Source: Squalus acanthias
Taxonomy: Eukaryota
Direction: 5' to 3'
NCBI GenBank assembly: GCA_030390025.1
Contig: CM059443.1
Location: 12,214,001-12,278,000, forward strand
DNA: 64,000 nucleotides
Shown: positions 11,801 to 58,464 of the stretch, one piece after another
How the letters are laid out: every line of letters starts with the position of its first letter
Numbering within the stretch: position 1 is the first letter of the stretch
Notes under the pieces: generated by a model
Databases searched by the model: none
Seen by the model: only the letters and a program-made list of their open reading frames with translations
What the model was told of the DNA's origin: nothing
Position numbers and translations under genes: made by a program

Positions 11801-11973
11801 GATGCACGGAGGCGTACAATTAATGGTTGACTAAAAAACTAGTGAAAAAACTTTCCTTACAGACATGTTACAGAGACACATTTGTATTTCACACCCTAGG
11901 TAACTTGTTTAATGTGGCTGGTTATTAGACTACAACATTTATTAAATAGAAAACATATTTACATGAAGTCATA

Positions 11974-12862
11974 GGGGGAAAAATTCAGTTGGTTGCGCCT
12001 CCCGTTAGCACCTTAAGAGGGTGCTAATGGGGCGCAAAGCAGCTAGCGCCTGGGTGCGGCGATGTTTGCGCCGCTCGCGAAATTAACTAGACATTTTGCG
12101 GCGGCACTAAACACTACCACCACGATCTCCTGCGCCAGCAGATCGTGACGTCAGTCGAGTGCGCAACGCCCCGGTAGCGCCCCGGAGCGGATATGGAGTG
12201 GCGCCCCCTGCCTTACCGCCTGCCACTAGCAATGACAGGTTGAGGGGAGTGTTTTGCAGTCAGGAAGGGACTGGGGGAGCGCTATTTAAAGGCGACCGCT
12301 TCCTGCCTTTTTTTGTTGGTGACATTTTTGAACCACGCATTCTGAGAGAGAGAGAGACTCCTGGAGAGATTCAACGCTGTGTGAAGGAGTTTTGGGTACT
12401 GAGCAGCACTTTGCAGGTTCATTTTGATTTGTCCTTCCTTGTATTGATTTAGAAGAGACTGTGGGGGTTGCACTCTGAGCTCTTTCCCTGGGCCTCTCCA
12501 TTGTTCTTTCCAGCAGATTTGATGTACAGGTCTCTCCAGGCCGAGATTCAAGGTTGCAATGAGCAGGATGTGGATGGAAAGCAAAATCAACCCTCCCCTT
12601 TAAGAACTGGCCGGGGCCATTGTGTCTGTGTTCCATTGCTGACTGACATCACATGAGCTTCGCCAGCGCTCTGAGTTAGCGCCTCGCTCCTCGGCCTTTG
12701 CGCCTTAAGACAGATGTGTAGCACCTGATTTAGCGCTCCAATCACCTCCAGGGGCGATAAAAGTCAAGTTTGCAGTCGGAGGCGATAATTAGCGCCATGT
12801 GCTAATCTTTGCGCCCGGCCGATAATTGCGCCCCAAACGGGGCGATACCGAATTTCTCCCCC
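11974..12862. mobile_element. PIF/Harbinger-type MITE family A, copy 1
   Basis: TIRs GGGGGAAAAATTC / GAATTTCTCCCCC, 3-bp TSD ATA, no coding capacity, colinear with the copy at 55886-56779. Confidence 0.8.
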
Positions 12863-13520
12863 ATAGAGTCATAACAGCACAGAAGGAGGCCATTCGGCTC
12901 ATCGAGTCCATGCCGACTCTCTGTAGAGCAATCCAGTCAGTCCCATTCCCCTGCTCTATCCCCGTAGCCCTGCAAGTTTATTTCCCTCAAGTGCCTATCC
13001 AGTCTCCCCTTGAAAACATTGAGTGTGTCCGCTTCCACCACTTCCGTCGGTAGCGAGTTCCAGGTCCTCACCACTTGCTGCGAAAAAAGTTTTTCCTCAC
13101 ATCCCCTCTGTATCTCTTGCCCAAAACCTTAAATCTGTGTCCCCTAGTCCTTGTACCATCAACTAGTGGGAACAGCTTTTCCCCATCTAGCTTATCCAAA
13201 CCCGTCATAATCTTGTACACCTCTATCAAATCACCCCGCAACCTCCTTTGCTCTAATGAAAACAAATCCAACTTCTCCAACCTGTCCTTGTAGCTAAGAT
13301 CCCCCATCCCCGGAACCATTCTGGTAAATCTCCCCTGCACCCTCTCAAGTGCCTTCACATCCTTCCTAAAGTGTGGTGACCAGAACTGGACGCATTACTC
13401 CAGTTGTGGCCTAACCAGTGCTTTATAAAGGTTCAGCATAACTTCTCTACTTTTGTACTCAATACCTCTATTAATGAAACCCAAGATCCCATATGCTTTG
13501 CTCACCACTCTCTCAATATG
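12863..13520 (-). mobile_element. CR1 LINE 3' fragment
   Basis: ORF 13068-13358 KALERVQGRFTRMVPGMGDLSYKDRLEKLDLFSLEQ. Same subfamily as the element at 51872-55885. Confidence 0.92.
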
Positions 13521-13822
13521 TCTCTCAATATTTTATACATTTAGTATAAAATAGCTCATGCAGAGTTTGCTAAAAATGTAACTCTTTCAACATCAGTTCT
13601 ATGGGATTATTGGGGGAGTACATCGCTCTGGGGGTGGGACCGGGGGTATTTTGATTAACCGTTGTTCAACTGAGTTTCTCATAGATGTATTTTGAAGAAC
13701 CTCTGTGATTTGATAGAGGTGTACAAGATTATGACGGGTTTGGATAGGCTAGACGGGGAAAAGCTGTTCCCACTAGTTGATGGTACAAGGACTAGGGGAC
13801 ACAGATTTAAGGTTTTGGGCAA

Positions 13823-17568: not shown

Positions 17569-18134
17569 GTAAACAGTTCAAAGTGAGCAAGCTGTTGTAA
17601 ATACCTGTGGGTGAGTCCTTCACATTTACAGAACCTTTTGTTCCATTCTATACTGTTCAAGGCATAGCCAGCCCTTTGGCTCACCATGAAAGCGGGTTTG
17701 TATTAAGCAGGGTACGGGATGTTCATTTGCACTGGAACATTAGAAATCTTAGGAACAGATCCTCCCACAACAGGGTTTTGTTCTTTCTCTCTTCTCCTGC
17801 CTCAATAGGATGTTTCTCCCACCTAGCAGGGTCCCACTGCCCCCTCCTTCAACAGGATATTCCCCCCTCAACAGTCTTTCTGTCTCTTCCCTCTTGGCGG
17901 TTCCCCATCACCATCACCAGATCTTGTCCTTTCACCCCCACAACCGTGTATCTTTCAGTCTCTTCTTGCCCACTGTTAAACAGGATCTTTCTCAATCTCT
18001 TTCCCTTTCTCTTTCTTCTGCTGCTTCTCCTCATCCCTTAGGCAAGAGAGTCCCTCTCCCTCGCCCTCTTTATTATAATGACATTGTTGCAACATTAGTT
18101 TTAAGGAAGAAATTACTTTCTTCCCTTCTCTCCT

Positions 18135-18966
18135 ACAGACACTGACTCTCACTGGGGTACAGTTCCACAGACACTGACTTTCACTGGGGTACAGTTCCAC
18201 AGACACTGACTCGCTGGGGTACAGTTCCACAGACACTGACTCTCACTGGGGTACAGTTCCACAGACACTGACTCTCACTGGGGTACAGTTCCACAGACAC
18301 TGACTCTCACTGGGGTACAGTTCCACAGACACTGACTCGCTGGGGTACAGTTCCACAGACACTGACTCTCACTGGGGTACAGTTCCCCAGACACTGACTC
18401 TCACTGGGGTACAGTTCCACAGACACTGACTCTCACTGGGGTACAGTTCCACAGACACTGACTCTCGCTGGGGTACAGTTCCACAGACTCTGACTCTCAC
18501 TGGGGTACAGTTCTACAGACACTGACTCTCGCTGGGGTACAGTTCTACAGACACTGACTCTCACTGGGGTACAGTTCCACAGACACTGACTCTCACTGGG
18601 GTACAGTTCCACAGACATTGACTCTCACTGGGGTACAGTTCCACAGACACTGACTCTCACTGGGGTACAGTTCCACAGACACTGACTCGCTGGGGTACAG
18701 TTCCACAGACACTGACTCTCACTGGGGTACAGTTCCCCAGACACTGACTCTCACTGGGGTACAGTTCCACAGACACTGACTCTCACTGGGGTACAGTTCC
18801 ACAGACACTGACTCTCGCTGGGGTACAGTTCCACAGACTCTGACTCTCACTGGGGTACAGTTCTACAGACACTGACTCTCGCTGGGGTACAGTTCTACAG
18901 ACACTGACTCTCACTGGGGTACAGTTCCACAGACACTGACTCTCGCTGGGGTACAGTTCCACAGAT
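18135..18966. repeat. 32-bp minisatellite, ~26 copies
   Basis: Unit acagacactgactctcactggggtacagttcc. Confidence 0.97.
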
Positions 18967-19299
18967 ACTAGTTGCCCTCTGATAGCCTGTAATCACACAC
19001 AAGCACTTTTCAGCAGGGGTCACTGGATAGTGAGTGATTAGGAGTTGTTTTAAGAGCCGCTGTGAGGAGTTATTTTTGTTTTGTTTTCATTCTATATCCC
19101 GGGGTCCTGAGGTCAATTGTAGCACCCCTACTGCTGTCCCAGCTGAGATCAGCAAAGATCGGGATCAAACCTGGGACTCACCTGGTCGATATGATTCATC
19201 ATCACAAATCCCTGAGACCTTGTTCCATGTTCTGCTTTATCATCACACTGGGATGGGTAAATATTCTCTGTTTTGACTCTGTCCCTTGCTTTCTTTCAG

Positions 19300-19365
19300 C
19301 TGGCTGGCTACTTAACATGCAGCAACTAACATTAGGAGATCAGATAGGGGAAGGGGAATTTGGAG
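19300..19365 (+). CDS. MATK: MATK coding exon (kinase start, Gly-rich loop)
   Basis: CAG acceptor and GTGAGT donor. 66 nt translate (A)GWLLNMQQLTLGDQIGEGEFG. Confidence 0.95.
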
Positions 19366-19499
19366 GTGAGTGTTCAATGAATTAATTCCTAATCTCTTAA
19401 TTGTTTGTTTGTGAATAGGTTCTGCACTCACCCAGGTGAGGGATGTTAATGCTGGGAAATGGTACATTTCCTCATTTCAGGCAACCAATGTCTGAGCAC

Positions 19500-22032: not shown

Positions 22033-24366
22033 GAATATAGGGTACATCCGATTGAATATAGGAGGTTCCAGCTAAGTGCAGGGTGGGTCTGGCTGCATGT
22101 AGAGTGGGTCCAGTTGAGGGGAGAGGTCGATCTAGTTGAGTGGGAGTCTGGTTCAGTGGGTACTGCTCTGTTTTTTTTTAAGGGTAGTTTATTTTCGTAT
22201 TTAAATGTTAATATTCCAGTACGGGAATGGGACTGGTCCTATCCTGTAGTGGTGCAAAGAGGTCAGAGTTGAATAGTGTTGATTAGCTTGGGGATCAGGG
22301 AGATTTGATACAGAACTTTTATGCAAGAGATTAAATGTATGGGGTAGAGTTTGTGATCGGGTAGACTGTATATGGGCTAGGTAATGAGTGAGCTTGATGG
22401 GTCTTTTCTCATTCCATGCTTTCTTTGGTTCTCCTGAACAGGGACTCTGACAGCATTGTACATTTAGCTTGCAAAAGAAAGAGCTGCAGTTCTATAATGC
22501 CTCTCAGAAACATCTCAAAGCTCTTCACATGCAATGACTTGAAAGTACAGTAAATGCTGTGTAAAATAATGCAGGAGCCAGTTTGCACAGAGCAAGATCC
22601 CACAAACTGCAATGAGCTGAATGACCAGCTAAATACGTTTTAGGCGGTAGTGATTGAGGGGGGAATGTTGGCTCGAACACTGGGAGAACTTCCTAGTCTT
22701 CAAATAGTGCGATGGGATCTTTAACATTCAGTTGAACTAGTAGAACAGGCAGACGGGGCCTTAGTTTAACAGCTCACCCAAAAGACGGCACCTCTGACAG
22801 TGCATCACTCCTTCAGTACTCAACTGACGTGTCAGCCTGGATTATGTGTTCAAGTCTACGTGCGGGGCTCGAACCCAAAACCTTCTGACTCAGAGACCAG
22901 AAAGTGCTGACAGAGCCAAACTGACAGTAATTTAATAAAGTGGAAGTGTAGTCAAATTTTAATAATTTAAAAAAAAGATTAACTGAAAAAATGATCAAAT
23001 CTGTGCTGGTTTTGTGTGAAGTTCATTTGTAAAGGACAATCCTTGGGAGGTCACTGTGTGGTTAGCAGTTTTGTAATGTGGCCACTAGGTGGGACAACAG
23101 TCCCTGTATTTATCCAATTTCCCACACTTGTCAGCGCTAATATCCCAGCATTATGTAGTCATTAGACGGAGGTTGCTCTGGGCCTCCCCCCAGTATCTGA
23201 GTGAGTGAACACACTGCCCGGTCTGGGACTGAAGCAGACTGACCAGAATGGTACCTGGTCAAACCTGGCTCTCGCCGGGGCTCTGTTTTCTGGATACTAG
23301 CACCCCTCCTGTACCTTGCTCAAGGGGCCATTCTGCCTGTGTGAGCCTAGACCGTGAATGTTCGCAGGCTATTCTGGGAGTATCGCAGCAAGGTCCGACC
23401 CAGCCCTCCTACAATTATAACAATTCAAGCCCGCTCCCGATGCCTTTGTCTGACGGCCAAAGCGACAGGTCCACCTCCACATGCAAGCTGCTGCTTCCTA
23501 ACCAGCGAAATGTGACCTTGTGCAGGCAGTAATCTGGGATAGTGTGCCCCAGGTCAACAGTGAACCCTTTTATTGCTACTGGATCGCACATAACAGTTCT
23601 ATTAGGTCTCAAAAGCAAAGTAAATGCTGGAATTCTGAAATAAAAACAGAAAAGGCTGGAAATACTCAGCAAGCCAAGCAGCAGCTGTGGAGAGAGAAAC
23701 AAGGAGGGCTAATGCTTCAGGTCGATGACCTTTCATCAGAACTGGTCGCACACCACTTAGATTGGAGGCACACAATGTTGCTAAGGTCATTGGGTGCACC
23801 TTCCTCATTTACATCCCTTTACAGGACACCGTCCACATGTGGCGGGAGTATTGTGCGCTCGGTCCCAAAGCGTCAGGAATTCTGACAGTGCCGGAACCCT
23901 GGTCGGCCCAGGTCTGCCCCAGAATCTGCCCTCTTCCACCCCCTCGCCCACTGCCAGTGCACTGCAAAAACCGCCCTCCCCATCCCCAGGAATGTCGGGG
24001 CTCTGATCTCGGAGCCAAGATGTTGGGTTTCAAATGAATAAGTGGCATTTTAAAAACCTAATTTGAACCAAAGGCTGTAAGGAAACCACAAACGCAACAT
24101 TCCAATGTTTCTGTCACATCACCTGACGCCCACACACGGGTGCACTTTCCAGCAAGAGTCACTGGATAATGACCAGGAGCAGGAACCTTGTCCAATTTTC
24201 TTCCTCCTCCCTGACACAAGGCACTGAGGCCAACTGTAGTGCCACTGACTAGGGATCAAATCCGGAACCTTCCTAATCCTATGGCTGAGTCCCGCACTGG
24301 GTGGGTGTGTATATTCAGCCTTTCTGTGTGTGCGGTACCCTGGCTGTGGGAAAGCTCACACAAGGC

Positions 24367-26715: not shown

Positions 26716-27342
26716 CATGATTGCGGAGATGCCGGCGTTGGACTGGGGTGGACAAAAATGAGAAGTCGCACAACACCAGGTTATAGTCCAACAGATTTAT
26801 TTAAAATTACAAGCTTTCGGAGCTGTCGCCCCTTCCTCAGGTAAAGTTACAATGAGTAAATCTACAATATTTCACAGTATATAAACACAGAAACTGCAGA
26901 GATACAATCTTTCAGGGAAGGTGTCCTTACATCAAAGACACACCAAGAGCACAGCCAAGACAATGAGATGTGTCACACACACAACGCAAAATCATCGAGC
27001 AGAAACTGATAGCTAAGTTCCGCTCCCATGAGGATGGCCTCAATAGGGATATCGGGTTCATGCAAAAAAAACAAACACAAAAAGAAAACTGCAGACAGCA
27101 GGATTTGACACGTTGGACCCCCTGTGACACATCTCATTGTCTTGGCTGTGCTCTTGGTGTGTCTTTGATGTAAGGACACCTTCCCTGAAAGATTGTATCT
27201 CTGCAGTTTCTGTGTTTATATACTGTGAAATATTGTAGATTCACTCATTGTAACTTTACCTGAGGAAGGGGCGACAGCTCCGAAAGCTTGTAATTTTAAA
27301 TAAATCTGTTGGACTATAACCTGGTGTTGTGCGACTTCTCAT
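26716..27342 (+). mobile_element. Penelope-like element remnant with 222-bp inverted pLTRs and GIY-YIG C-terminal fragment
   Basis: Arms 26756-26977 and 27123-27344 with one mismatch seen. The spacer encodes TQRKIIEQKLIAKFRSHEDGLNRDIGFM (Penelope endonuclease C-terminus). 12-bp TSD ttctgaagtgta at 26704 and 27343. Inserted in a DeuSINE. Confidence 0.88.
27256..27293 (+). ncRNA. Minimal type I hammerhead ribozyme (Penelope-associated)
   Basis: ttac-CTGAGGA-a-ggggc(gaca)gctcc-GAAA-gc-tt-gtaa: stem I ttac/gtaa, 5-bp stem II, palindromic AGCT stem III, CUU triplet. Mirror copy on the - strand at 26807-26844. Confidence 0.7.
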
Positions 27343-27479
27343 TTCTGAAGTGTAGCCACTGTCGTCAAGAACTGTGGCAGCCAATTTGCGCACAGCAAGG
27401 TCCCACAAGTAACAATGAGATAAACGGCCAGTAGGAAAGTTTCACCATCTTTAAACGTTCTGTTCTCTGTCCGTTCAAG

Positions 27480-29908: not shown

Positions 29909-30218
29909 CTGGCAGCTGTCCTTTATTCTGCCAGTGCATTTCACACTTCTTTTAGCCTCAACCTGTCACATTAACACCTCCTCTTGCCTTGATCATCTCT
30001 TAATCTCTCCCTTTGTTCTTTCATCCCCTCCCCCTTTTCCCAGCTTTATCCTTGCTTTAAATCTATTTCATTTCCTGCTTTTTCCAGTTCTGACGAAAGG
30101 TCTTCGACCTGAAATGTTAACTCTGTTTCTCTCTCCACGGATGCTGCCTGGCCTGGAGTTTTTCCAGCGTTTTCTGTTGTTATTTCGGATTTCCAGCATC
30201 CGCAGTATTTTGCTATCG
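29909..30218 (+). mobile_element. Penelope-like 3' fragment with hammerhead core
   Basis: Same subfamily as 43595-44197. CTGACGA...GAAA at 30090-30114. Ends in the full tail cgcagtattttgctatcg. Confidence 0.8.
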
Positions 30219-32102: not shown

Positions 32103-32694
32103 GAATTCTTCACGTGTGGGTCTAGACAGTGAATTCTTCACGTGTGGGTCCAGACAGTGAATTCTTCACCTGTGGGTCCAGACAGTGAATTCTTCACCTG
32201 TGGGTCCAGACAGTGAATTCTTCACCTGTGGGTCCAGACAGTGAATTCTTCACCTGTGGGTCCAGACAGTGAATTCTTCACCTGTGGGTCCAGACAGTGA
32301 ATTCTTCACCTGTGGGTCCAGACAGTGAATTCTTCACCTGTGGGTCCAGACAGTGAATTCTTCACCTGTGGGTCCAGACAGTGAATTCTTCACCTGTGGG
32401 TCCAGACAGTGAATTCTTCACCTGTGGGTCCAGACAGTGAATTCTTCACGTGTGGGTCCAGACAGTGAATTCTTCACGTGTGGGTCCAGACAGTGAATTC
32501 TTCACGTGTGGGTCCAGACAGTGAATTCTTCACGTGTGGGTCCAGACAGTGAATTCTTCACGTGTGGGTCCAGACAGTGAATTCTTCACGTGTGGGTCCA
32601 GACAGTGAATTCTTCACGTGTGGGTCCAGACAGTGAATTCTTCACGTGTGGGTCCAGACAGTGAATTCTTCACGTGTGGGTCTAGACAGTGAAT
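32103..32694. repeat. 28-bp minisatellite, 21 copies
   Basis: Unit gaattcttcac[c/g]tgtgggtccagacagt. Confidence 0.97.
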
Positions 32695-36626: not shown

Positions 36627-37060
36627 AGCAAAGACAGTTTGAAAAGCAACTCGGGGTCAGGTTTAAATAGCTTCAATGTCTCTTATTGAACTAGCGTTCT
36701 GGGATGGATCATTTCTAGGATCTTACGATTGAAGTGAGCAGCAGCACTGGGTGAAGAAGCACTGATTATACATAAAGGGATAAAAGAAAAACCCCTCAGT
36801 TTCCTGTTGGATTCCACTATTCACACTCCGATGGTTCCCGTCCATGTTTAACTCACCCCCTTTGTCTTTCCAGTTTCCGTTCACATCTCAACTGAGCTGG
36901 CCTCTGTAAGTTGTGTTTTCTCACATATGAGATTAGAAATTGACATCACTGTTTGGGGAATCGGGGGAGGGGGTTTATAGAGGGTCACATCAACCTCCGC
37001 TTTCACTCCCGGTGAAGCAATTTCACCAAAGACATTTCACCTGGGGACATAATCACACCA

Positions 37061-38648
37061 ACCCATTACAATCAGCACCGCACCACCCATTACAATCAGC
37101 ACCGCACCACCCATTACAATCAGCACCACACTGACCCATTACAATCAGCACCACACTGACCCATTACAATCAGCACCACACTGACCCATTACAATCAGCA
37201 CCACACTGACCCATTACAATCAGCACCACACTGACCCATTACAATCAGCACCACACTGACCCGTTACAATCAGCACCACACTGACCCATTACAATCAGCA
37301 CCGCACTGACCCATTACAATCAACACCACACTGACCATTACAATCAGCACCACACTGACCATTACAATCAACACCACACTGACCCATTACAATCAGCACC
37401 ACACTGACCCATTACAATCAGCACCACACTTACCCATTACAATCAGCACCACACTGACCCATTACAATCAGCACCGCACTGACCCATTACAATCAGCACC
37501 ACACTGACCATTACAATCAACACCACACTGACCCGTTACAATCAACACCGCACCACCCATTACAATCAGCACCGCACTAGCCATTACAATCAGCACCACA
37601 CTGACCCATTACAATCAGCACCGCACTAGCCATTACAATCAGCACCACACTGACCCGTTACAATCAACACCACACTGACCATTACAATCAGCACCACATT
37701 GACCCATTACAATCAGCACCGCACCACCATTACAATCAGCACCACACTGACCCGTTACAATCAGCACCACACTGACCCGTTACAATCAACACCGCACTGA
37801 CCATTACAATCAGCACCACATTGACCCATTACAATCAGCACCGCACCACCATTACAATCAGCACCACACTGACCCGTTACAATCAGCACCACACTGACCC
37901 ATTACAATCAGCACCGCACTAACCATTACAATCAGCACCGCACTAACCATTACAATCAACACCACACTGACCCGTTACAATCAGCACCACACTGACCCAT
38001 TACAATCAGCACCACACTGACCATTACAATCAACACCACACTGACCCATTACAATCAGCACCACACTGACCCATTACAATTAGCACCACACTGACCATTA
38101 CAATCAGCACCGCACTAACCATTACAATCAGCACCACACTGACCCGTTACAATCAGCACCACACTGACCATTACAATCAGCACCACACTGACCCATTACA
38201 ATCAGCACCGCACTAACCATTACAATCAGCACCGCACTAACCATTACAATCAGCACCACACTGACCCATTACAATCAGCACCGCACTGACCCATTACAAT
38301 CAACACCACACTGACCCATTACAATCAGCACCACACTGACCCATTACAATCAGCACCGCACTGACCCATTACAATCAACACCACACTGACCCATTACAAT
38401 CAGCACCGCACTGACCCATTACAATCAGCACCGCACCACCCATTACAATCAGCACCACACTGACCATTACAATCAGCACCGCACTAGTCATTACAATCAG
38501 CACCACACTAGCCATTACAATCAGCACCGCACCACCCATTACAATCAGCACCACACTGACCCATTACAATCAACACCACACTGACCCATTACAATCAGCA
38601 CCTCACCACCCATTACAATCAACACCACACTGACCCGTTATAATCAAC
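37061..38648. repeat. 24-25-bp minisatellite, ~64 copies
   Basis: Unit acccattacaatcagcaccacactg with variants. Confidence 0.97.
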
Positions 38649-39057
38649 AAGGGATAAGGGAGTTTTTAAACAAAACTCTCCTTATGGAGATGAAATGGGT
38701 GGGCTGGAGCCCATGATAGGGTAGATTGTACATGGGCTTTAAGACGAGCAGGGCTGCTGGACTGAATGGCCTTCTCTCATTCCATGCTTTGTTTTCCCTA
38801 CATTACAACAGTGACTACACTTCAAAAGTACAAATTGGCTGTAAAGCGCTTTGGGACATTCTTAGGTCATGAAAGGTGCTATATAAATGCAAGTCTTTTC
38901 TTTCTTTATGTCTTTTTTTTACTTGTTCTGAAGTCCCTACTCTTTGTGGTGCCTACTGACTAGTGGAGCAGATTTGTACCTCAATGGACAGCTTCTGCAC
39001 ACATTCCTTCTTAGTGTTTCATTAAATGTTGATGTGATCGTGCACCCCTGTGTTTAC

Positions 39058-40329: not shown

Positions 40330-41027
40330 GATGCACTGACTCCTTCTATGGTACCATTCCACAGACACTGACTCCCATTGGGTACAGTTCCACAGACACT
40401 GACTCCCACTGGGGTATAGTTCCAGACACTGACTCTCTCTGGAATACATTTCCACAGATACGGACTCTGACTGGGGTACAGTTCCACAGGGGTTGACTCT
40501 CACTGGGGTACAGTTCCACTGACTCTCACTGGGGTACGGTTCCACAGACACTGACTCTCACTGGGGTACAGTTCCACAGACACTGACTCTCACTGGGGTA
40601 CAGTTCCACAGACACTGACTCTCACTGGGGTACAGTTCCACAGACGCTGACTCTCACTGTGGTACAGATCCACAGACACTGAATCTCACTGGGGTACAGT
40701 TCCACAGACTCTGACTCTCACTGGGGTACAGTTCCACAGACACTGACTCTCACTGTGGTACAGATCCACAGACACTGACTCTCACTGGGGTACAGTTCCA
40801 CAGACACTGACTCTCACTGGGGTACAGTTCCACAGGCGATGACTCTCACTGGGGTAAAGTTCCACAGACACTGACTCTCACTGGGGTACAGTTCCACAGA
40901 CACTGACTCTCACTGGGGTACAGTTCCACAGGCGATGACTCTCACTGGGGTAAAGTTCCACAGACACTGACTCTCACTGGGGTACAGTTTCACAGACACT
41001 GACTCTCACTGGGGTAAAGTTCCACAG
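40330..41027. repeat. 32-bp minisatellite, ~22 copies, same unit as 18135-18966
   Basis: Unit cagacactgactctcactggggtacagttcca, degenerate at the left end. Confidence 0.95.
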
Positions 41028-41778
41028 GCTCAAATATAACGACCGCCCAGCTCTGATTGGTTCAGCACAACACCAGTGTGTGGATCAGGGGTGCTGTATT
41101 GTTTTCAATTTAAACCATTTCAGTTTCAGCACAGTCCTGTTAACCACCGTCTTTAATAATCTATTTGATCGCAATGATTTGCCTCTAAGATAATCCAATC
41201 TCTTTAAATCTGACTCAGAGACTCATTTGGCTGCTGATATGATCTATTATTGTTTGCGATTGAGCCATTTATCTAATTAAGTAATAATGGATGTGTGAAT
41301 GGACTGTCGTACCATATTAAACACAGGCAGGATGAACAGAGGACAAGACCGAAGTATGATCCTAGTAATCACTCTCGTCCCAGCCTGGGTACGGCTGGAT
41401 ATTTACTTTCATTGCGGATTTCCCTTTAGGGGTGGGCCCATTTTTTCGAAGCAGAGGTTAGGGTGGACTGGGATGGACGGGACTGGAACGGGACGGGGTT
41501 CAAGTTCTCAGTATAGTGCTGCATTATCTCACCAGTTATGTAAGTTGGTCTCTGTTTCTCATTGACCTTCCAGGATCGAGCATAATTACCCAAAGATTGA
41601 CATATGCCTTCAGAGCATGCACCAGCCTTCACCACCTGCTTTAATGCAGAGCCCTGTGATTTGTGGAGCTAGTGAGACTGGCTCACACTCCCAGCCTCGC
41701 TCCCCACTCTGTTGGTGCAGGGAACTTTATTCTTTTAAACAATCTTTTCTTTTGATTTGCAGCCTTGGGGCTCGTTGC

Positions 41779-42763
41779 CCTCACTGCCCCTGACCCCAGC
41801 CTCACTGCCCCTGACCCCAGCTTCACTGCTCCTGACCCCAGTCTCACTGCTCCTGATCCCAGCCTCACTGCTCCTGATCCCAGCCTCACTGCTCCTGACC
41901 CCAGTCTCACTGCTCCTGACCCCAGTCTCACTGCTCCTGATCCCAGCCTCACTGCTCCTGACCCCAGTCTCACTGCTCCTGACCCCAGTCTCACTGCTCC
42001 TGACCCCAGCCTCACTGCTCCTGACCCCAGCCTCACTGCTCCTGATCCCAGCCTCACTGCTCCTGATCCCAGCCTCACTGCTCCTGATCCCAGCCTCACT
42101 GCTCCTGACCCCAGTCTCACTGCCCCTGACCCCAGCCTCACTGCCCCTGACCCCAGCTTCACTGCTCCTGACCCCAGTCTCACTGCTCCTGACCCCAGCC
42201 TCACTGCTCCTGACCCCAGCCTCACTGCCCCTGACCCCAGCCTCACTGCTCCTGACCCCAGTCTCACTGCCCCTGACCCCAGCTTCACTGCTCCTGACCC
42301 CAGTCTCACTGCTCCTGACCCCAGTCTCACTGCCCCTGACCCCAGCCTCACTGCTCCTGACCCCAGTCTCACTGTCCCTGACCCCAGTCTCACTGCCCCT
42401 GACCCCAGTCTCACTGTCCCTGACCCCAGTCTCACTGCTCCTGACCCCAGTCTCACTGCTCCTGATCCCAGCCTCACTGCCCCTGACCCCAGTCTCACTG
42501 CTCCTGACCCCAGTCTCACTGCTCCTGATCCCAGCCTCACTGCCCCTGACCCCAGCCTCACTGCTCCTGATCCCAGCCTCACAGCTCCTGACCCCAGCCT
42601 CACTGCTCCTGACCCCAGCCTCACTGCTCCTGATCCCAGCCTCACTGCTCCTGATCCCAGTCTCACTGCTCCTGACCCCAGTCTCACTGCCCCTGACCCC
42701 AGTCTCACTGTCCCTGACCCCAGTCTCACTGTCCCTGACCCCAGCCTCACTGTCCCTGACCCA
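41779..42763. repeat. 21-bp minisatellite, ~47 copies
   Basis: Unit ctcactgctcctgaccccag[c/t]. Confidence 0.97.
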
Positions 42764-43594
42764 AAAATTGAATATGTGAAGTAAACACGTCAATGGAAAG
42801 ATTTTAGATTTGGACAAGTATTTTTGATTTGGACAAGTATTTTTGAAAAATGTGCTGGTTATATATCTAGAAAATGCATAAATTGCTCCTTGAATTTATT
42901 CTCCGAGATTGTGAATGCACAGTCAAAAGATGGGGTGGAGTCAAGGGGTATTTAAGGTGGGAGTGGGGGCGAGCACCTATTCTTAACAAATTCCCTTTAG
43001 TTACAGTTCAGGAGTATTTACATCACTGGCTCCCAGTACAAATTGTACATCATGGCTCAATGAGGCCAGTGAACGGAGCTCTATTGTGCGTCCTTGCACA
43101 CAGCGACCCATCTCCGCGTTAACTCACCAAAGGTCAATGCGCAGGCAGTGGTATAACTCATGGCTGCTGGCTCCGCCTCACTCTAAACAGGGACCAGTCT
43201 GAAACTGGTACTGTTGTGTATGTTGCCGCTATGGATACCAGCTTTCACAGGGGCAGGTCCCACCAGTCCAGTGATGTGATACAAGATGTGGCTCGCGAAG
43301 GTGGGATCACAATGGACTCGGAGCAGTCTGTGTTGTATAAATTGGAGCTCGGCCATTCACACGTATCACAAGCTCCTTTGGATCAGGGCTGTGCGTTTGA
43401 TCACATTTACAATCTTGTCCATTTTATGCTCCACTTATGCTGCCATCAGCAAAGCAAGGCTCTCCCCTTTCCCACCGCAATCTGGTTTGCAAATAACGAG
43501 CTCTTCCAGCTCGTAGCTTCTGTACCGCTCCCCGAGTCCCGCTTCATCAGCCCACTCGCTCCTCTGACCTCAAGCTGAACTCCTTCATCTCCTC

Positions 43595-44197
43595 GATAGC
43601 AAAATACTGCAGATGCTGGAAATCCGAAATAACAACAGAAAACGCTGGAAAAACTCAGCAGGCCAGGCAGCATCCGTGGAGAGAGAAAGAGAGTTGACGT
43701 TTCAGGTCGATGACCTTTCATCAGAACTGGGAAGAGCTGGAAATCAAATAGATTTAAGGCCAGGGTAAAGCTGGGAAAAGGGGGAGGGGATAAAGGAACA
43801 AAGGAGGAGATGAAGAGACATTAAGAGACATTAAGAGATATGCAAGGCTAGAGGTGGTGTTAATGTGACAGATTAAGGCTGAATGAAGTGTGAAATCTAC
43901 TGGCAGCTGTCCTTCATTCTGCCAGCAGATTTCACACTTCATTCAGCCTTAATCTGTCACATTAACACCACCTCTAGCCTTGCATATCTCTTAATGTCTC
44001 TTAATGTCTCTTCATCTCCTCCTTTGTTCCTTTATCCCCTCCCCCTTTTCCCAGCTTTACCCTGGCCTTAAATCTATTTGATTTCCAGCTCTTCCCAGTT
44101 CTGATGAAAGGTCATCGACCTGAAACGTCAACTCTCTTTCTCTCTCCACGGATGCTGCCTGGCCTGCTGAGTTTTTCCAGCGTTTTCTGTTGTTATT
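43595..44197 (+). mobile_element. Palindromic Penelope-like insertion (281-bp arms, 12-nt loop)
   Basis: Arms 43626-43906 and 43919-44199 with one mismatch seen. 14-bp TSD tccttcatctcctc at 43581 and 44198. Confidence 0.88.
44097..44133 (+). ncRNA. Minimal type I hammerhead ribozyme (Penelope-associated)
   Basis: agtt-CTGATGA-a-aggtc(atc)gacct-GAAAC-GTC-aact: canonical core, GUC triplet at 44127-44129, palindromic ACGT stem III. Mirror copy on the - strand with its core at 43699-43724. Confidence 0.75.
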
Positions 44198-44860
44198 TCC
44201 TTCATCTCCTCTATTGCTGAAACTGTCTCCAAGTAGCTCGATTTATTTCCCCTCAATAGCTCTTAACCGTCTCTAAATATATATGCCTCAACCAACATCA
44301 CTAAAACAGATGATCTAGTCAGTATCACATTGCCGTTTGTGGGACCTGGCTGTGCGCAAAATTGGCTGCTGCGTTTCCTGCATTTCAAGCAGTACTTCAT
44401 TGGCTGTAAACGCTTTGGGACGTCCCGGGGCCGTTAAAGGCGCTATATAAATGCAAGTCTTTCATTTTAAAGTCCAAGTCCATCCGAGAGTTGGACGCTG
44501 CTCCCGTATCTTCCAACACCTCTCTCCCACTCCTGGACAGGGCCCAGGATAAAGCTGCTCTCACCTCTAGTCTCCAACCTCTCTCCATCACAACCTTTCT
44601 TGTCTCAATTTTATTATTTGATGTGTCAGCTGTGGCTCAGTGGGTAGCCCACTCACCTTCTGAGTCCGAAGGTTGTGGGTTCACAGTCCCACTCCAGGGA
44701 CTTGAGCACAAAGGTTTAGGCTGACAGGGAGCGCTGCACTGTCGGAGGTGCCGTCTTTCAGATGAGACGTTAAACTGAGGCCCAGTCTGCTCTCTCAGGT
44801 GGATGTAAAAGTTCCTATGGTACTATTTTGAAGAAGAGCAAGGGAGTTATCCCCGGTGTT

Positions 44861-45360: not shown

Positions 45361-45868
45361 CACATTGCTGTTTGTGGGATCTTGCTGTGCGCAAATTGGC
45401 TGCCACGTTTCCTACATTAAAACAGTGACTACACTTCAAAAAGTACTTAATCAGCTGTAAAGCGCTTTAGGACATCCAGTCGTGAAACGCGCTATATAAA
45501 TGCAAGGCTTGCTTTCTTTCTTTCTTCTTTCTTATTACTACTGTGGTTTGTGGTCCTCTGAACTTTCCTCTCTTGTTCCTTCTAAACTCCAGCTATCCCA
45601 TCCTGCACTCTCTTCCTCCTCCCTGCATCCTATCTTTGAAATTAAGATTCGTGACACCATGTCCTGATCTTGCAACTGATAAACATGCCTCCTCCCTCAG
45701 TCTTCAAATAAGAAACTTTTTTTCCCTCACCACCATGCCCCCCCTCCCTGCCCCCCACCCCCCCATTACCTCACCCGAAGGTACTGACTCCCAGTTGGGG
45801 AGCAGCCACCAGCCGCCCTCCAGTAACTTGCCTAAGTGGCCATTCTTCACATATGAACCTTGACAATG

Positions 45869-46585
45869 AGTCATAGAGTCATAGAGTTATACAGCACAGA
45901 AAGAGGCCCTTCGGCCCATCGTGTCTGTGCCGGCCATCAAGCCCTGTCTATTCTAATCCCATTTTCCAGCACTTGGTCCGTAGCCTTGTATGCTATGGCG
46001 TTTCAAGTGCTCATCTAAATGCTTCTTGAATGTTGTGAGGGTTCCTGCCTCTACCACCCTTTCAGGCAGTGAGTTCCAGATTCCAACCACCCTCTGGGTG
46101 AAAAAGTTTTTCCTCAAATCCCCTCTAAACCTCCTGCCCCTTACCTTGAAACTATGCCCCCTTGGTTATTGACCCCTCTACTAAGGGGAAAAGTTCCTTT
46201 CTATCTACCCTATCTATGCCCCTCATAATTTTGTACACCTCAATCAGGTCCCCCCTCAGCCTTCTCTGCTCTAAGGAAAACAACCCCAGCCTGTCCAGTC
46301 TCTCTTCATAGCTGAAGCGCTGCAGCCCAGGTAACATCCTGGTGAATCTCCTCTGCACCCTCTCCAATGCAATCACATCCTTCCTACATAAGAACATAAG
46401 AAATAGGAGCAGGAGTAGGCCAATCGGCCCCTCGAGCCTGCTCCGCCATTCAATAAGATCATGGCTGATCTGATCCTAACCGCCAATCTATAGTGTGGCG
46501 ACCAGAACTGCACACAGTATTCCAGCTGTGGCCTAACTAGCGTTTTGTACAGCTGCATCATAACCTCCCTGCTCTTATATTCTAT
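45869..46585 (-). mobile_element. CR1 LINE 3' fragment containing a short second CR1 tail (46386-46490)
   Basis: ORFs 46152-46397 and 46373-46606 give CR1 ORF2 C-terminal peptides. Tail gagtcatagagtcata. Confidence 0.88.
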
Positions 46586-47876: not shown

Positions 47877-47892
47877 GGCACCAGAGGGCGCT
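47877..47892 (+). promoter_or_regulatory. CTCF-like motif
   Basis: GGCACCAGAGGGCGCT is a close match to the CTCF core, and lies in apparently non-repeat sequence between the two genes. Confidence 0.4.
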
Positions 47893-51310: not shown

Positions 51311-51871
51311 TGTGTGGGACATGCCGGATGGCCATTTGGCTGAGGTAGCAGAGGGCTGCAGCTATCTGGAGCCCGTACCCCAGAGAGGGCCAGCACTTTC
51401 AGGAGAAGGGGGGAGAAAACTGGGGCAAAACAAAAAATGGAAAGAAAGGAAAGGATCTGCAATCCCATTTGCTGACAACCTGTGAAGCCACTTTCTTCAA
51501 TTACAAAATGTTGATCTATTTTTTTAAACTTTGAGATAACTACTGGAGGACTCCAGCCGTTTTAAGGTTGGCCAAGACAGTGTGGTCCAGTCCAAGATTT
51601 CCAAAGTTCATCTTTTTGTCATCGGCTGTTGGACCTCACAGGATTGGGGGGAGATTTTTGCACACTGGCTTCAGTCCTTCAATTTCTGATTTACTGCCAT
51701 GTGCTCGCTGACCAGGGATTTCCCGTTCCTGGTGCACTGTTCACCTGCCCCATTGACCTTGCTTGTTGAACCCTCCCTCCTTGTTTGGGACACAATGAGA
51801 TTCACTGTAATCAGTTCCATTTTGACAGATGTAAAGAAAGACTTGCATTTATAGAGCGCCTCCCACGATCA

Positions 51872-54800
51872 CAGGTGAATGCGTGGCTGGAGAGATGGTG
51901 CAGGCGGGAGGGCTTTAGATTCCTGAGACATTGGGACCGTTTCTGGGGAAGGTGGGACCTGTACAAGCCGGACGGGTTACACCTCAATGGAGCCGGGACC
52001 AATATTCTCGCGGGGAGGTTTGCTAGTTCTGTTGGGGAGGGTTTAAACTAGCTTGGCAGGGGGATGGGCACCAGCATATAGGAGTAGAAAGGAGGAATAA
52101 GGTGCATAAAAGAGTGAGTGTGTGGGATAGTACTAGAGAAGAAAGTAGTATTAGAGGCAGAAGTAGTATCATATTAGATAGGAGCAGACTAAGAAAGACT
52201 ACGAAAAATTCAAAAATGGGTTTAGAATGCATGTACGTAAACGCACAAAGTGTGGTGAATAAGGTTGGTGAGCTTCAAGCACAATTAGCCATGTGGCAGT
52301 ATGATGTTGTGGCAATAATGGAAACGTGGCTTAAAAGCAGTGAGGACTGGGCACTTAATATTCAAGGGTACAAGGTGTTCAGAAAAGATAGGGAAGGAAA
52401 AAAGGGAGGTGGGGTGGCAGTGCTGATTAAGGAAGACATTGTAGTATTGGAAAGGGAGGATGTTCTTGAGGGAACAAGGACAGAATCCGTTTGGTTAGAG
52501 TTGAGGCATAAAAGGGTATGATCACGCTATTGGGGGTATTCTATAGGCCTCCAAATAGTGAGAGGGAGGTAGAGGAGCAAATCTGCAGGGAAATTGCAGA
52601 GATATGCAAGAGCTATAGAGTGGTGATATTGGGGGACTTTAATTACCCAAACATCGATTGGGATAATGCTAAGGTAAAGGGAAAGGAGGGGGAGGAATTT
52701 CTGAAATGTGTTCAGGAAAATTTCCTTGACCAGTATGTTCTTGGCCCAACTAGAAAGGAGGCATTGCTGGATCTGGTGCTGGGGAATGAGGTGGGCCAGG
52801 TCGACCAAGGGCTCAATTTTCACCGGCCCGTGGAGGCGGGTTTGAAGGCGGGAGTGGTGTGAAAATAGCAGATTCGGGGGTCCCGAACCCATCCCGCCCC
52901 CATACCAGTTTCCCAGGAGGCGGGTACCCGACCTGTGCTGGTACCCGCCTCCCCCAGGCGGGAAGGGGATTAGTGCCAATAAACTGCCTGTTAACAGGCA
53001 GTTTTTTGCCTAATCCCTATTTTTAGCCCTGAAGTGTGGGCTTCCCGACAGGTCCGAACCACGCCGATTTAGCAAGGCGGACCGTCGGTCTGGAGGGCTT
53101 GGAGGGGTCGAGATGTCCGGTGTGCAGGTGAGTGATGGGTGCATGAGTGCAGAGGTAAGTGTGTTTGGTATGTGTAAAGTGTTTTAAGAACTTTTACTTA
53201 CCTTAACTTTGTCCTGCAGGCTGGCTTCCTTAAGGTGTCGGGAGTCCCTCACATCCACGGCACAGAAAGCAGAATGGCCGCGGAGCTGTCAAAAGCTGCA
53301 GTCTCTGCTTTCTGTGCTGGATTGATTTCTAACTGAGTCTAAGTACAGGGACTCAAGTTAGAAATCATATTGTCAGTGTTTGACAGCTTCAGCTTCAAAC
53401 GCTGAAATTTCATCTGTCAAAAAAGCTCTTGACAGATGAAATTTCAATGGCTGACGTCACCTGTATCCAAGGGACCCTTGATTGGCCTGCTAAGCCCGCT
53501 GGGCGGGCTTAACAAGGTCAATCAAGGGAAAATACAGTGGGTTGGCCACAAGTCAATGGAGGTGGGACTGCAACCCAAAAAGTGGGAGTCCCGCCTCCAT
53601 CACGTCCCCATTGACAAAATCCAGCCCCAAGTGTCTGTGGGAGAACACTTGGGTACGAGTGATCATTGTATCATAAGATTTAGATTAGCAATGGAGAGGA
53701 GCAAGGAACAATCTAGCGTGGAACTTCTAAACTGGAATAGGGCTAACTTCAATGGGATGCAAAAGGATCTAGCCAGGGTAAAATGGAACAAAAGACTGAT
53801 AGGAAAAACTGTAACAGAACAATGGGTAATCTTTAAGGAGGAGATGTTCCAAGTACAGACTAGGTACATTCTAACAAGAGGGAAGGGTAAGGGAACCAAA
53901 GCAAGGGCTCCTTGGATGACGAGGTAGATAGAGAAGATGATGAAACAAAAAAAGAGGGTGCATGATGCATGTCAGGTGAATTCTTCAAGGGAGAACCAGA
54001 CCAAATACAATAAGTTGAGAGGGGAAGTGAAGTTGAAAATAAGATTGGCAAAGAGAGAATATGAGAGTAGAATGGCGGTTAACATAAAAGGGAACCCAAA
54101 AATCTTCTACTGGCATGTAAACAGTAAGCGGGTAGTAAGAGGCGGGGTGAAGCCTATTAGAGACAAAGATGGTGATATATGCTTAGAGGCGCAGGGCAAG
54201 GCTAGAATACTCAATGAGTACTTTGTATTGGTGTTTACTAAGGAGGTGGATGCTGACAAAATATTGGTAGAAGTGGAAAAGGTAGAAGCAATGGAAGGGG
54301 TGAAAATTGATAGACAGGATGTACTAGAAAGGCTGGGTATGCTTAGAGTGGATAAGTCGCCTGGTCCAGATTGCTTGTATCCCAGGTTGCTAAGGGAATT
54401 GGGGGAGGAGATAGCGGAAGCGCTTGCCATAATTTTCCAATCTTCCCTAGATGCGGGGGAGGTGCCTGACGATTGGAAAGTGGCAAATGTGACACCATTA
54501 TTCAAGAAAGGGTGTAAGGACAATCCTAGTAACTACAGGCCGGTCAGTTTAACATCAGTGGTGGGTAAAGTTTTAGAAACAATAATCAAGGAAAAAATTA
54601 ACAGGCACTAGGAGAGGTTTAAGCTAATTAAGGAGAGCCAACACGGATTTGTAAAAGGCAGATCGTGTTTGATGAAGTAACAGGGAGGATTGATGAAGGG
54701 AATGCAATGGATGTTGTCTACATGGATTTTAGGAAGACGTTTGACAAAGTACCACATAGAAGGCTGGTTAACAAAATTGAGGCCCATGGAATAGGTGGGT

Positions 54801-55885
54801 CAGTGGCAGCTTGGATAAGGAATTGGCTTAAGGACAGAAAACAGCGAGTTGTGGTAAATGGCTGTTTTTCAGACTGGAGGATGGTCGACAGTGGTGTTCC
54901 CCAAGGGTCAGTGCTGGGGCCACTGCTTTTTTGATATATATAAATGACCTGGATATTGGAATACAGAGTAAAATTTCTAAATTTGCCAATGACACCAAAC
55001 TTGGGGGTGTGGAAAAAAAGTGAGGATGATACCAATCGACTGCAACAGGACATAGAAAGGCTCGCAGAATGGGCAGACAAGTGGCAGAAAGAATTTAATA
55101 CAGTGAAGTGTGAGGTGATGCATTTTGGCAGAAGGAACAGGGAGAGGCAATATACACTTAATGGCACAGCTTTAAAGAGTGTGCATGGACAGAGGGACCT
55201 GGGAGTTAATGTGCATAGATCCCTGAAGGTGGCAGGACATATTGAGAGAGTGGTTAACAAAGCATATGGGATCTTGGGCTTCATAAATAGAGGTATTGAG
55301 TACAAAAGTAGAGAAGTTATGCTGATCCTTTATAAAGCGTGGTTAGGCCAAAACTGGAGTATTGCGTCCAGTTCTGGTCACCACACTTTAGGAAGGATGA
55401 GAAGGCCCTTGAGAGGGTGCAGGGGAGATTTACCAGAATGGTTCCGGGGATGGGGGATCTCAGCTACAAGGACAGGTTGGAGAAGCTGGATTTGTTTTCA
55501 TTAGAGCAAAAGATGATTTGATAGAGGTGTACAAAATTATGACGGGTTTGGATAGGCTAGACGGGGAAAGGCTGTTCCCACTAGTTGATGGTACAAGGAC
55601 TAGGGGACACAGATTTAAGGTTTTGGGCAAGAGATACAGGGGGGATGTGAGGGAAAACTTTTTTACTCAGCGAGTGGTGAGGACCTGGAACTCTTGACCA
55701 ACTGAAGTGGTGGAAGCGGAGACACTCAATGTTTTCAAGGGGAGACTGGATAGGCACTTGAGGGAAATAAACTTGCAGGGCTACGGGGATAGAGCAGGGG
55801 AATGAAACTGACTGGATTGCTCTACAGAGAGCCAGTAGGAACTCGATGGGCCGAATGGCTTCCTTCTGTGCCGTTATGACTCTAT
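51872..55885 (+). mobile_element. Near-full-length CR1 LINE (ORF1 esterase C-terminus plus ORF2 APE-RT), disrupted
   Basis: ORF1 NAWLERWCRREGFRF...PDGLHLN (SGNH-esterase type). ORF2 YVNAQS, ETWL, YRPP, GDFNYP, SDH and RT QGSVLGP. Stops, frameshifts and two MITE insertions. Confidence 0.95.
52809..53627. mobile_element. PIF/Harbinger-type MITE family B, copy 1, inserted in CR1 ORF2
   Basis: TIRs GGGCTCAATTTT / AAAATCCAGCCC and 3-bp TSD CAA. It splits EVGQVDQ|VSVGEHLG. Confidence 0.85.
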
Positions 55886-56779
55886 GGGGTAAAAATTCAC
55901 TTGGTTGCGCCTCCCGTTAGCGCCTTAAGAGGGTGCTAATGGGGCGCAAAGCCGCTAACGCCCGGGCGCAGCGATGTTTGCGCCGCTCGAGAACTTAACT
56001 TGAGATTGTGTGGCGGCGCTAAAACTTACCGCTGCGACCACCTGCGCGCGCAGATTGTGACGTCATTCCATGGTGCAACGCCCTTGTGGCGCCCCGGAGC
56101 GGAAATTGAGTGGCGTCCCCTGCCTTACCGCCTGGCGCTTCCAACGACCAGAAGACTGGAACGCTATCAATCGCTGTGGGGCTGGGGGGGGGCGCTATTT
56201 AAAGGGGGCCTCTTCCTGTCTTTTATTGTTGGTGGCATTTTTGAACTACGCATTCTGAGAGAGAGAGGGAGAGACTTCTGGAGAGATTCAACGTTGTGTG
56301 AAGGAGTTTTGGGTACTGAGCAGCACTTTGCAGGTTCATTTTGATTTGCCATTCCTTGTATCGATTTAGCAGAGACTGTGGGAGCTGCACTCTGAGCTCT
56401 TTGCCTGGTACGCTCCATTGTTCTTTCCAGCACATTTGATGTGCAAGTCTCTCCAGGCCGAGATTCAAGGCAGCAATGAACAGGATGTGGATGGAAAGCA
56501 AGATTAACCATCCCCTTTAAGAACTGGCCCGTGCCATTGTGTGTGTGTTCCATTGCTGACTGACATTACATGAGCTTCGCCAGCGCTCCGAGTTAGCGCC
56601 TCACTGCTCGGCCTTTGCGCCTTAAGAGAGGTGTGCAGCGCCTGCTTTAGCGCTCCACTCACCTCCCGGGGCGGTAAAAGTGAAGTTTCCTGTCAGTACC
56701 GATAATTAGCGCCAGGCGCTAATATTTGCGTCCGGACGATATTTGCGCCCCAAATGGGGCGCGACCTAATTTCTACCCC
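55886..56779. mobile_element. PIF/Harbinger-type MITE family A, copy 2
   Basis: TIRs GGGGTAAAAATT / AATTTCTACCCC and TSD TAT (55883-55885, 56780-56782). Confidence 0.82.
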
Positions 56780-58464
56780 TATGACTCTATAACTTCCCAA
56801 AGCACTTTACAGCCAATGAAGAGCTTTTGAAATGTAGTCACTGTTGTAATGTAGGAAACGCGGCAGCCAATTTGCGCACAGCAAGGTCCCACAAACGGGC
56901 ATGTGATATTGACCAGATCATCGGTTTTTAGGTGCTGATTGAGAGATTAATATTGGCCGGGACACCAGGGAGAACTCCACTGCTCTTCTTTGAAATAGTG
57001 CCGTGGGATCTATTACGTCCACCTGAGAGAGCAGACGGGGCCTCGGTTTAACGTCTCATCTGCAAGATGGCACCTCAGACAGCACAGCACTCCCTCAGCT
57101 CTGCACTGGAATGTCAGCCTGGATTATGTGCTCACGTCTCTGGAGTGGGACATGGATAGTAAGCGGTGGGAGGCAACTCAACCATGGAAGCACAACATCC
57201 GAGCCTGATCCAGTACTCGCCTTATGTTCAAATTGCTTCATACATACAGTAACAGTGTCCCTTGCCAGCAGGAGTCACTAAGGAGCATCTTGAAGGAGGA
57301 GAGAGAGTTGGAGAGGCTTAGGGAAGGAATTCCGGAGCTTAGGGCCCAAACAGCTGAAGGCACGGCCGCCAACGGTGGGGTAAAGGAAGTGGGGATGTAC
57401 AAGAGGCCAGAGTTGGAAGAACGCAGAGTTCTCAGAGGGTTGTAGGGCTGGAGGAGGTTACAGAAAAAGGGACAGGCGAGGCCATGGAGCGATTTGATGA
57501 TGAGAATTTAAAAATGAGCTGTTCAGGGACTGGGAGCCAATGTAGGTCAGTGAGAACAGGGGTGATGGGTGAGCGGGATTTGGTATGGGTTAGGTTACGG
57601 GCAGCAGAGTTTTGGATGAGCTTAAGTTTATAGAGGGTGGAGAATGAGAGAGTATTGGAACAGTCGAGTAGATATAAAAGTAATGGAAAAGATGCAGCAT
57701 GGGTTCACTAGGATGTTACTGGGGTTGAGGGGTTACAGTTATGAAAAGAGACATGAGATGGTAGGGCTTTTTTCACTGGAGCTGAGAAGGTTAAGTGGTG
57801 CTAGAGTACAGGAAGGGGGGAAAAGAACAGCCACTCCTGATCGGTATTTAGTGCACCTGTTAGAATGGACAACCATGTACAGAACAGGTACAAGGTGGGT
57901 TGTCCACACCCCTGGGGTCCACCTGCCTATCTACCGCCGCATTCACGGGTCACGGCAATCCTTTGCCAGATTTTCCATGCTTCTCTCCCCCTCTACTATT
58001 CTGCTGTCACCATTTACACATCCTCTGGACCTGTCTTTTGTTTCTATACTTGTCCCATTATTACCTCCTTGCACCATCATCCCTTTTGTCATTTAGTCAC
58101 TCTGCCCTCCACCCTGTCACAGACCTTTCCTGTTTGTTCTTTCCCTGCCCCCCTTTTCCCTGGCTCTTCACTTATCTAAAAGCTGTTCCTCTCTAACATC
58201 TTCCAGTTCTGACCAAGGGTCATCGACCTGAAACGTTAATTCTGTTCTCTCTCTCCACAGATGCTGCCTCACCTGCTGAGCGTTGCCAGCACTTTCTGTT
58301 TTTATTTCAGATTTCCAGCATCCACAGTATGTTGCTTTTATTTCAGGTACGGTAGTGTAGTGTTACTGGATTAGTAATACAGAACGCCTACACTAATAAT
58401 CCAGAGAACGTGAGCTCAAATCCCACCATGGCAGTTCGAGAATTTGAATTCAGTTTAAAAAAAA

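Follow-up and report, generated by a model that had tools for sequence, protein, structure and literature searches.

Two copies of a miniature inverted-repeat transposable element (MITE) lie at the same base of the 3′ tails of two long interspersed nuclear elements (LINEs) of the CR1 group, in opposite orientations relative to their hosts, in a stretch of the Squalus acanthias genome (assembly GCA_030390025.1, contig CM059443.1, positions 12,214,001 to 12,278,000 of the forward strand). We refer to the whole 64,000-nucleotide stretch as the window, and to this MITE as family A. The explanation that we favor, and consider fairly probable, is that two Harbinger-like MITE subfamilies inserted independently, an extended palindromic target preference having met a supply of sites made by repeats. 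One mobile element would then supply another with landing sites, in a case that is real but probably incidental.

Boundaries, duplications, and host elements

The two family A copies align end to end, both on the forward strand, at 85.7% identity in a comparison of the window with itself. Each is bounded by a target site duplication (TSD) of 3 bp: copy 1 is flanked on both sides by ATA on the forward strand, which is TAT on the strand of its CR1 host, and copy 2 is flanked on both sides by TAT. The inverted ends match at 12 of 13 positions in copy 1 and at 11 of 12 in copy 2. Since the hosts lie on opposite strands and the MITEs on the same one, the MITE is flipped relative to its host between the two loci. 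There are stops in all six frames and no match to Pfam or Rfam, so that by size, inverted ends, TSD, and lack of coding capacity family A is a MITE. Both subterminal regions have TATA-like words nearby, a short conserved ATG frame runs on the minus strand, and the word GCGCC occurs 13 and 17 times in the two copies, compared with ∼0.9 per kilobase across the window.

Beyond these two full copies, the window contains one related end (for coordinates of all features, see Table 1). This orphan end is 83.7% identical to family A over 43 columns and adjoins TAT outside any CR1, its terminal sequence differs, and no matching 3-bp duplication was found on its two sides.

A first-pass annotation of the window had described a MITE present twice at the identical base of a CR1 tail in opposite orientations, and direct reading together with the self-comparison bears this out, with the flanks as it quoted them. 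It was also right that the MITEs are clearly diverged from each other, that the outer flanks are unrelated (they do not align), and that the hosts share a CR1 peptide, which can be read from both in alignment with synonymous differences only. The orphan fragment that it reported is indeed a related end next to TAT, although it starts at 9905 rather than 9906 and has neither the 3-bp duplication nor the family A terminus.

Table 1. Positions of the two MITE families, their CR1 hosts, and associated repeats in the window
Feature	Position	Strand	Remarks
MITE family A copy 1	11974-12862	+	889 bp; ∼13-bp imperfect inverted ends, fifth base G at each; orientation opposite to host CR1
MITE family A copy 2	55886-56779	+	894 bp; ∼12-bp imperfect inverted ends, fifth base T at each; oriented as host CR1
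Duplicated TAT (11971-11973) and final 4 CR1 tail bases, distal to copy 1	11967-11973	-	
Duplicated TAT (56780-56782) and one extra CR1 tail unit, distal to copy 2	56780-56790	+	
Orphan left end related to family A	9905-9945	-	41 bp; in TA-rich repeat, not in CR1 tail
Host CR1 copy 1	12863-13522	-	660 bp, 5′-truncated; tail ends in MITE-duplicated TAT (12863-12865)
Host CR1 copy 2	51876-55885	+	End of ORF1 (esterase-like), ORF2 (broken; with endonuclease and reverse transcriptase), hairpin region at 3′ end, octamer tail
Older interspersed repeat, 5′ part, split by CR1 copy 2	51833-51875	+	BLAST match 51833-51868, rest by eye against six other copies
Same older repeat, 3′ part	56791-57146	+	Resumes directly after CR1 tail
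CR1 of another subfamily	45868-46386	-	68-70% identical to hosts; tail with the hosts' 8-bp unit, empty
MITE family B copy 1	52809-53627	+	819 bp; TSD CAA; within host CR1 copy 2, in its endonuclease region; G-rich ends like those of family A, but different target
MITE family B copy 2	58900-59734	-	835 bp; TSD AAA; 74.6% identical to family B copy 1; unrelated flank, not in CR1 tail

The hosts belong to the same young CR1 subfamily, the segments 12863-13522 (-) and 55236-55885 (+) being ∼92.5% identical by BLAST. Each tail consists of 2 to 2.4 units of an 8-bp repeat and resumes beyond the MITE on the host strand, for four bases at copy 1 and eight at copy 2. The host is a CR1 by its ORF2, which has an apurinic-type endonuclease and a reverse transcriptase. 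The endonuclease of host copy 2 matches Exo_endo_phos (E = 7.9e-7) and Exo_endo_phos_2 (E = 6.8e-11) in Pfam; RVT_1 matches the broken pieces of this copy weakly (E = 0.07 and 0.19), and the host CR1 is 65.8% identical in DNA over 1,061 columns to an element with an RVT_1 match at E = 2.8e-32. Canonical CR1 elements are described as having an esterase ORF1 (PMC13343379) and a 3′ end made of a hairpin and then an 8-bp microsatellite, a proposal being that the reverse transcriptase recognizes the hairpin (PMC8665684). A 57-amino-acid remnant of ORF1 in host copy 2 has a weak match to Lipase_GDSL_2 (E = 0.0015; 19.5 bits, under the cut-off of 32.9). The octamer tail is seen directly in the hosts; a hairpin is predicted just upstream and is not significant against shuffled sequences (z = -0.3 and -1.4).

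At copy 2 the order of nesting is visible. An older interspersed repeat, intact at other places in the window, is split there and lacks the 11 bases that lie distal to the MITE. These bases are therefore CR1 tail, and the MITE entered last: The CR1 inserted into the older repeat, and the MITE into the CR1.

Divergence of the MITEs and of their hosts

The two MITEs differ at 121 of 888 columns (13.6%), their hosts at only 37 of 649 (5.7%). The contrast is found for non-CpG differences (86/749 in the MITEs vs. 28/617 in the hosts, P = 2.9e-6) and for transversions (65/888 vs. 13/649, P = 1.5e-6), so that the MITEs are 2.4 times as diverged as the hosts overall and 3.7 times for transversions. 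Equal divergence would be expected had a composite of CR1 and MITE been copied as a unit, and we therefore reject co-retrotransposition followed by a flip; independence of the two MITE insertions is strongly supported by this comparison. CpG observed/expected ratios are 0.78 and 0.86 in the MITEs, compared with 0.39 for the window, and with this much CpG retained the MITEs are not old enough for decay to explain the 13.6%. Base 5 covaries between the ends, being G at both ends of one copy and T at both ends of the other, which is the pattern expected of two source lineages.

A further piece of the host subfamily, 117 bp long and inverted, lies 470 bp from copy 1 (13706-13822), joined to an older CR1 via a short common word. 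It differs from each host at two of 117 positions, the hosts differ from each other at four, and at all four of these sites the fragment carries the shared state. The comparison is consistent with the hosts being two young, separately decayed copies.

Landing site and competing explanations

The two empty sites are identical at 12 of 12 positions (eight to the left and four to the right) and at 32 of 34 (30 and four). As a null distribution we used the 1,298,466 pairs of the remaining 1,612 TAT-centered sites in the window, among which 79 pairs match at 12/12 (6e-5) and 66 at 32/34 or better (5e-5); with symmetric flanks of six and six bases, 355 pairs match as well as the observed pair (2.7e-4). 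Exactly one TC-TAT-GA site is present in each host tail, so that identity of the base is partly forced once a tail has been hit. The coincidence of the sites is nonetheless confirmed as real, and within this window it exceeds what a preference for TAT alone would give.

Around its TAT the empty site has near two-fold symmetry, with the form GANTC-TAT-GANTC. Three of five base pairs are symmetric at one site and four of five at the other, whereas at least three are symmetric at 161 and at least four at 27 of the 1,612 background sites. Judging from these two sites, the transposase probably prefers GANTC-TAT-GANTC. Any tandem run of the hosts' 8-bp unit gives a site of this type at each internal TAT, and a symmetric site accepts an element either way round, which accounts for the opposite orientations. 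The copies of LINEs and short interspersed nuclear elements (SINEs) in the window end in at least four different tail units, and several of these yield a TC-TAT-GA center, making tails the main source of that word here: CR1 tails hold 11 of the 17 TCTATGA sites, and nine of the 15 unoccupied ones, spread over seven CR1 tails. Given a preference for these 7 bp alone, the probability that both insertions would fall in tails is 0.40. For plant Harbinger elements an extended target preference of 9 bp is reported, and for vertebrate ones a preference of 15 bp (PMC2836001), and the extended target of Harbinger3_DR is described as palindromic (PMC3016246).

Under the explanation that we favor, two CR1 copies of a young subfamily, each ending in 2-2.4 tail units, retrotransposed first. 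Later, cut-and-paste transposition would have brought two already diverged nonautonomous subfamilies of ∼890 bp into the tails, each at the second TAT, which was duplicated, with a transposase, probably of PIF/Harbinger type, presumably supplied in trans. The preferred site would be near two-fold symmetric around the 3-bp cut. The LINE would be a passive supplier of landing sites, and the MITE would neither ride on it nor need to recognize it.

Several observations weigh against this account. There are two insertions only (n = 2), in one window picked after the fact because it was striking. The symmetry of the copy 1 site is unremarkable alone (top 10%), and the orphan end is not at a GANTC-TAT-GANTC-type motif. 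In the host subfamily both 3′ ends hold a MITE, compared with none of the other seven TCTATGA-bearing tails, one of which has the hosts' unit and a perfect context. This occupancy pattern is not predicted by a plain motif model, although the numbers are small. No transposase or Myb-like remnant was found by Pfam on the reading frames or by two protein searches with MITE frames, and no copies outside the window were found in the protein databases and prokaryotic contigs that were searched. The excess divergence of the MITEs is uneven along the element (heterogeneity P = 6e-6): Divergence is 3.9% in the first 100 columns and reaches 36/148 (24%) and 19/152 (12.5%) in subterminal blocks, and the central 400 columns (28/373, 7.5%, vs. 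28/617 in the hosts) are only marginally above the hosts (P = 0.064). We read the unevenness as probable subfamily divergence, and the argument for independence then comes from just part of the element.

Dedicated targeting, in which a transposase or a Myb-like partner is specialized on the 3′ end of the host CR1 subfamily as a safe haven, is rather unlikely but fares best among the alternatives. Such a protein might read the tail plus upstream sequence or be tethered to a factor there, and Dada at small-RNA genes offers a comparison. Both full-length MITEs lie in the host subfamily and both of its 3′ ends are filled, 32 of 34 flank positions agree, and two diverged MITE subfamilies have the site in common. 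A census of LINE and SINE 3′ ends found two of 20 occupied, both of the host subfamily, and none of the other 18 (20 ends were retained from 22 motif rows, those at 51319 and 40185 having been dropped as spurious before counting). The unoccupied ends include the empty tail with the hosts' unit, at 45868-45890, the one unoccupied site, of 1,620 TAT sites, at which the target context is matched 9/9; this tail may leave room for subfamily-specific targeting, or for chance at low occupancy. However, both orientations are seen, as a short symmetric motif would predict, and the 7-bp motif by itself already gives the probability of 0.40 quoted above. The 30-bp upstream match is automatic once the hosts are of one subfamily, and family B, with similar ends, has no shared flank. 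The orphan end, in TA-rich DNA and with a different terminus, shows that the family in its wider sense also occurs outside CR1 tails, and it counts against strict targeting. Of the earlier suggestion that a Harbinger family targets the tail of this LINE, the repeated landing fits the data, but a short palindromic preference, whose commonest source of sites is CR1 tails, may be all that it reflects.

We also regard as unlikely that TAT/ATA or any W-rich triplet suffices and that the same tail was hit by chance, to be picked out in a scan of many windows. The post hoc choice of one window suits this explanation, as do the TAT next to the orphan end without a CR1 and the abundance in the window of MITEs with similar ends (families B, C, and D). 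Against it, given the first site, a second insertion in any CR1-tail TCTATGA would have a probability of 10/1617 = 0.006, and in the host subfamily of 0.0006. The empirical pair null gives 5e-5 to 3e-4, and an extended preference is reportedly a general trait of the Harbinger superfamily (PMC2836001).

It is highly improbable that a composite of CR1 and MITE was retrotransposed as a unit and the MITE then turned around between its ends, as the first-pass annotation had proposed as an alternative, or that the MITE left by excision and came back to the same site. The composite would account for the shared subfamily and base, and the marginal excess in the central 400 columns is compatible with it; CpG decay is also similar (13/49 and 7/43 in the MITEs vs. 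4/11 and 2/9 in the hosts), so that the insertions were not far apart in age. But the whole-element excess of divergence is highly significant, and two matched changes would be needed in both inverted ends of one copy, base 5 covarying as it does. A flip would moreover require a crossover within the outer 6 bp, since base 7 distinguishes the left end from the right and neither type of end has lost its identity, and the MITE would place ∼890 nt between the CR1 3′ hairpin and the end of the RNA (for the role of the hairpin, see PMC8665684). Nothing in the window shows a MITE traveling with a LINE, and the hitchhiking envisaged in the first-pass annotation finds no support.

The reverse order, with the MITE in place before a CR1 that inserted up against the MITE end by priming on TAT, has a precedent in retrotransposons that target DNA transposons (PMC4494074) but can practically be set aside, since both MITEs have tail sequence on their far side too and the older repeat at copy 2 is split by CR1 and MITE together and lacks the 11 distal bases, so that the whole tail predates the MITE. 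Template switching by the CR1 reverse transcriptase is ruled out by the exact end-to-end boundaries and the TSD in both orientations, and segmental duplication by the differing orientation and the outer flanks that do not align.

Relatives, surroundings, and known systems

From its inverted ends and TSD, family A probably belongs to the PIF/Harbinger superfamily. G-rich ends are a Harbinger trait, and the 3-bp TSD of PIF/Harbinger elements is found at both copies as TAT; the 2-bp (AT) TSD of the ISL2EU type does not fit the flanks. The ends of ∼12-13 bp are shorter than the 25-50 bp given for fish Harbingers (PMC9179366). The same source reports that Harbingers were not detected in elephant shark and suggests other cartilaginous fish for examination (PMC9179366).

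The Harbinger assignment of the first-pass annotation is based on the ends and TSD, and searches of Pfam and of protein databases returned no transposase to go with them. Autonomous PIF/Harbinger elements have ORFs for a DDE transposase and a Myb/SANT protein; there was no transposase or Myb match in Pfam for four long family A frames, which had no match of any kind above the cut-off, or for four family B frames. Reading frames spanning the junctions, used as protein queries, gave 17 candidates, none at E ≤ 0.001. A MITE frame searched against 1.84 billion protein representatives had one match, of 31% identity to a five-fold tandem peptide repeat, which we judged an artifact, and residues 20-65 of the frame searched against longer proteins gave one candidate, with none at E ≤ 10. 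A 21-bp conserved stretch of the MITE had no matches in prokaryotic genome contigs, and Rfam had none across the window. That the MITE arose by deletion and retains the beginnings of two convergent genes was also considered, and the search with residues 20-65 gave this no support.

The window is repeat-rich DNA in which CR1-group LINEs are abundant; in sharks and rays this group is reported to make up 22%-34% of the genome (PMC13343379). An SH2 exon at ∼6918-7139 has a Pfam SH2 match and its best solved relatives in CHK/MATK (E = 4.5e-30), ahead of CSK (E = 1.9e-26). This exon (6822-7217) is accompanied by a short frame at ∼19330-19375 that resembles the beginning of a kinase domain. A MATK-like gene on the forward strand appears to contain the repeats in its introns, and copy 1, at least, is probably in an intron of this CHK/MATK-like gene.

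Host CR1 copy 2 carries two different DNA transposons, of families A and B, and decayed elements with the same general type of inverted ends occur at 10950-11079 (130 bp) and 33077-33263 (187 bp). Two large near-perfect inverted repeats, at 43626-44199 (281-bp arms, 12-bp spacer) and 26753-27347 (225-bp arms, 145-bp spacer), represent either foldback duplication or features of the assembly. Copies of a frequent repeat family, which contains internal segments in inverted arrangement, occur many times in both orientations (3290-3836, 8758-8880, 23610-23745, 29909-30218, 43594-44199, and 58011-58339). Minisatellite arrays occupy 2355-3200, 18133-18969, 40334-41031, 32103-32694, 37054-38649, and 41779-42762; those at 18.1 and 40.3 kb have the same unit, 22 kb apart.

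A broader proposal, that a Harbinger-type lineage places most of its copies at one CR1-tail base across subfamilies >10% apart, with LINE expansion creating the niche, is possible but tentative. If true, it would imply a transposase with a usable specificity of 11-13 bp, and each insertion would part the LINE 3′ hairpin from most of what is left of the tail, so that this copy might no longer serve as a template. Should flanks genome-wide agree, a product of retrotransposon tail slippage would be the main landing pad of a DNA transposon, and the system would test, in nature, whether the target motifs of Harbingers follow host repeats; should they disagree, these are ordinary nested insertions in a repeat-rich intron.

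Among known systems, the closest likeness is to zebrafish Harbinger3_DR and Harbinger3N_DR, which have a 3-bp TSD, as family A does, and an extended palindromic target centered on it, as family A probably does (PMC2836001, PMC3016246). Harbinger3N_DR is also a nonautonomous element moved in trans, as we infer for family A (PMC2836001, PMC3016246). Harbinger3_DR differs in its CWG center and in a consensus unrelated to that of family A, and its target is not tied to another repeat in the passages of these papers that describe it. MuTAnT and the microsatellite-associated MITEs of pineapple are likewise nonautonomous and insert in simple tandem repeats, but MuTAnT is Mutator-like with a (TA)n target (PMC4486113, PMC8449440), compared with a LINE tail of two to three octamer units for family A.

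Sequence-specific DNA transposons are described as few (PMC8869645). Dada, Pokey, and CryptonV are, like family A, DNA transposons at fixed positions in multicopy sequences; elements of this kind target small-RNA genes, 28S rDNA, and microsatellites (PMC8869645), whereas the target of family A is made by a retrotransposon. Dada has a 6- to 7-bp TSD and a single orientation at sites in the anticodon region (PMC8869645), in contrast to the 3-bp TSD and both orientations of family A, which on its TSD is not a member of Dada. Of the Dada-like property that most copies occupy one base, family A presents two of two full copies (n = 2), with the orphan end elsewhere.

The mobile elements described in PMC4494074 and PMC8869645 as targeting other mobile elements are retrotransposons, and a search of literature titles and the opening parts of abstracts, with Repbase and Dfam outside its scope, found no DNA transposon concentrated in LINE tails. 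In crocodilians the direction is reversed, the retrotransposons Tx1-Mar/SINEU and Tx1-9_AMi targeting DNA transposons (PMC4494074), and hitchhiking was tested and rejected for such elements (PMC4494074). If the broader proposal is true, family A would be the mirror image of these retrotransposons.

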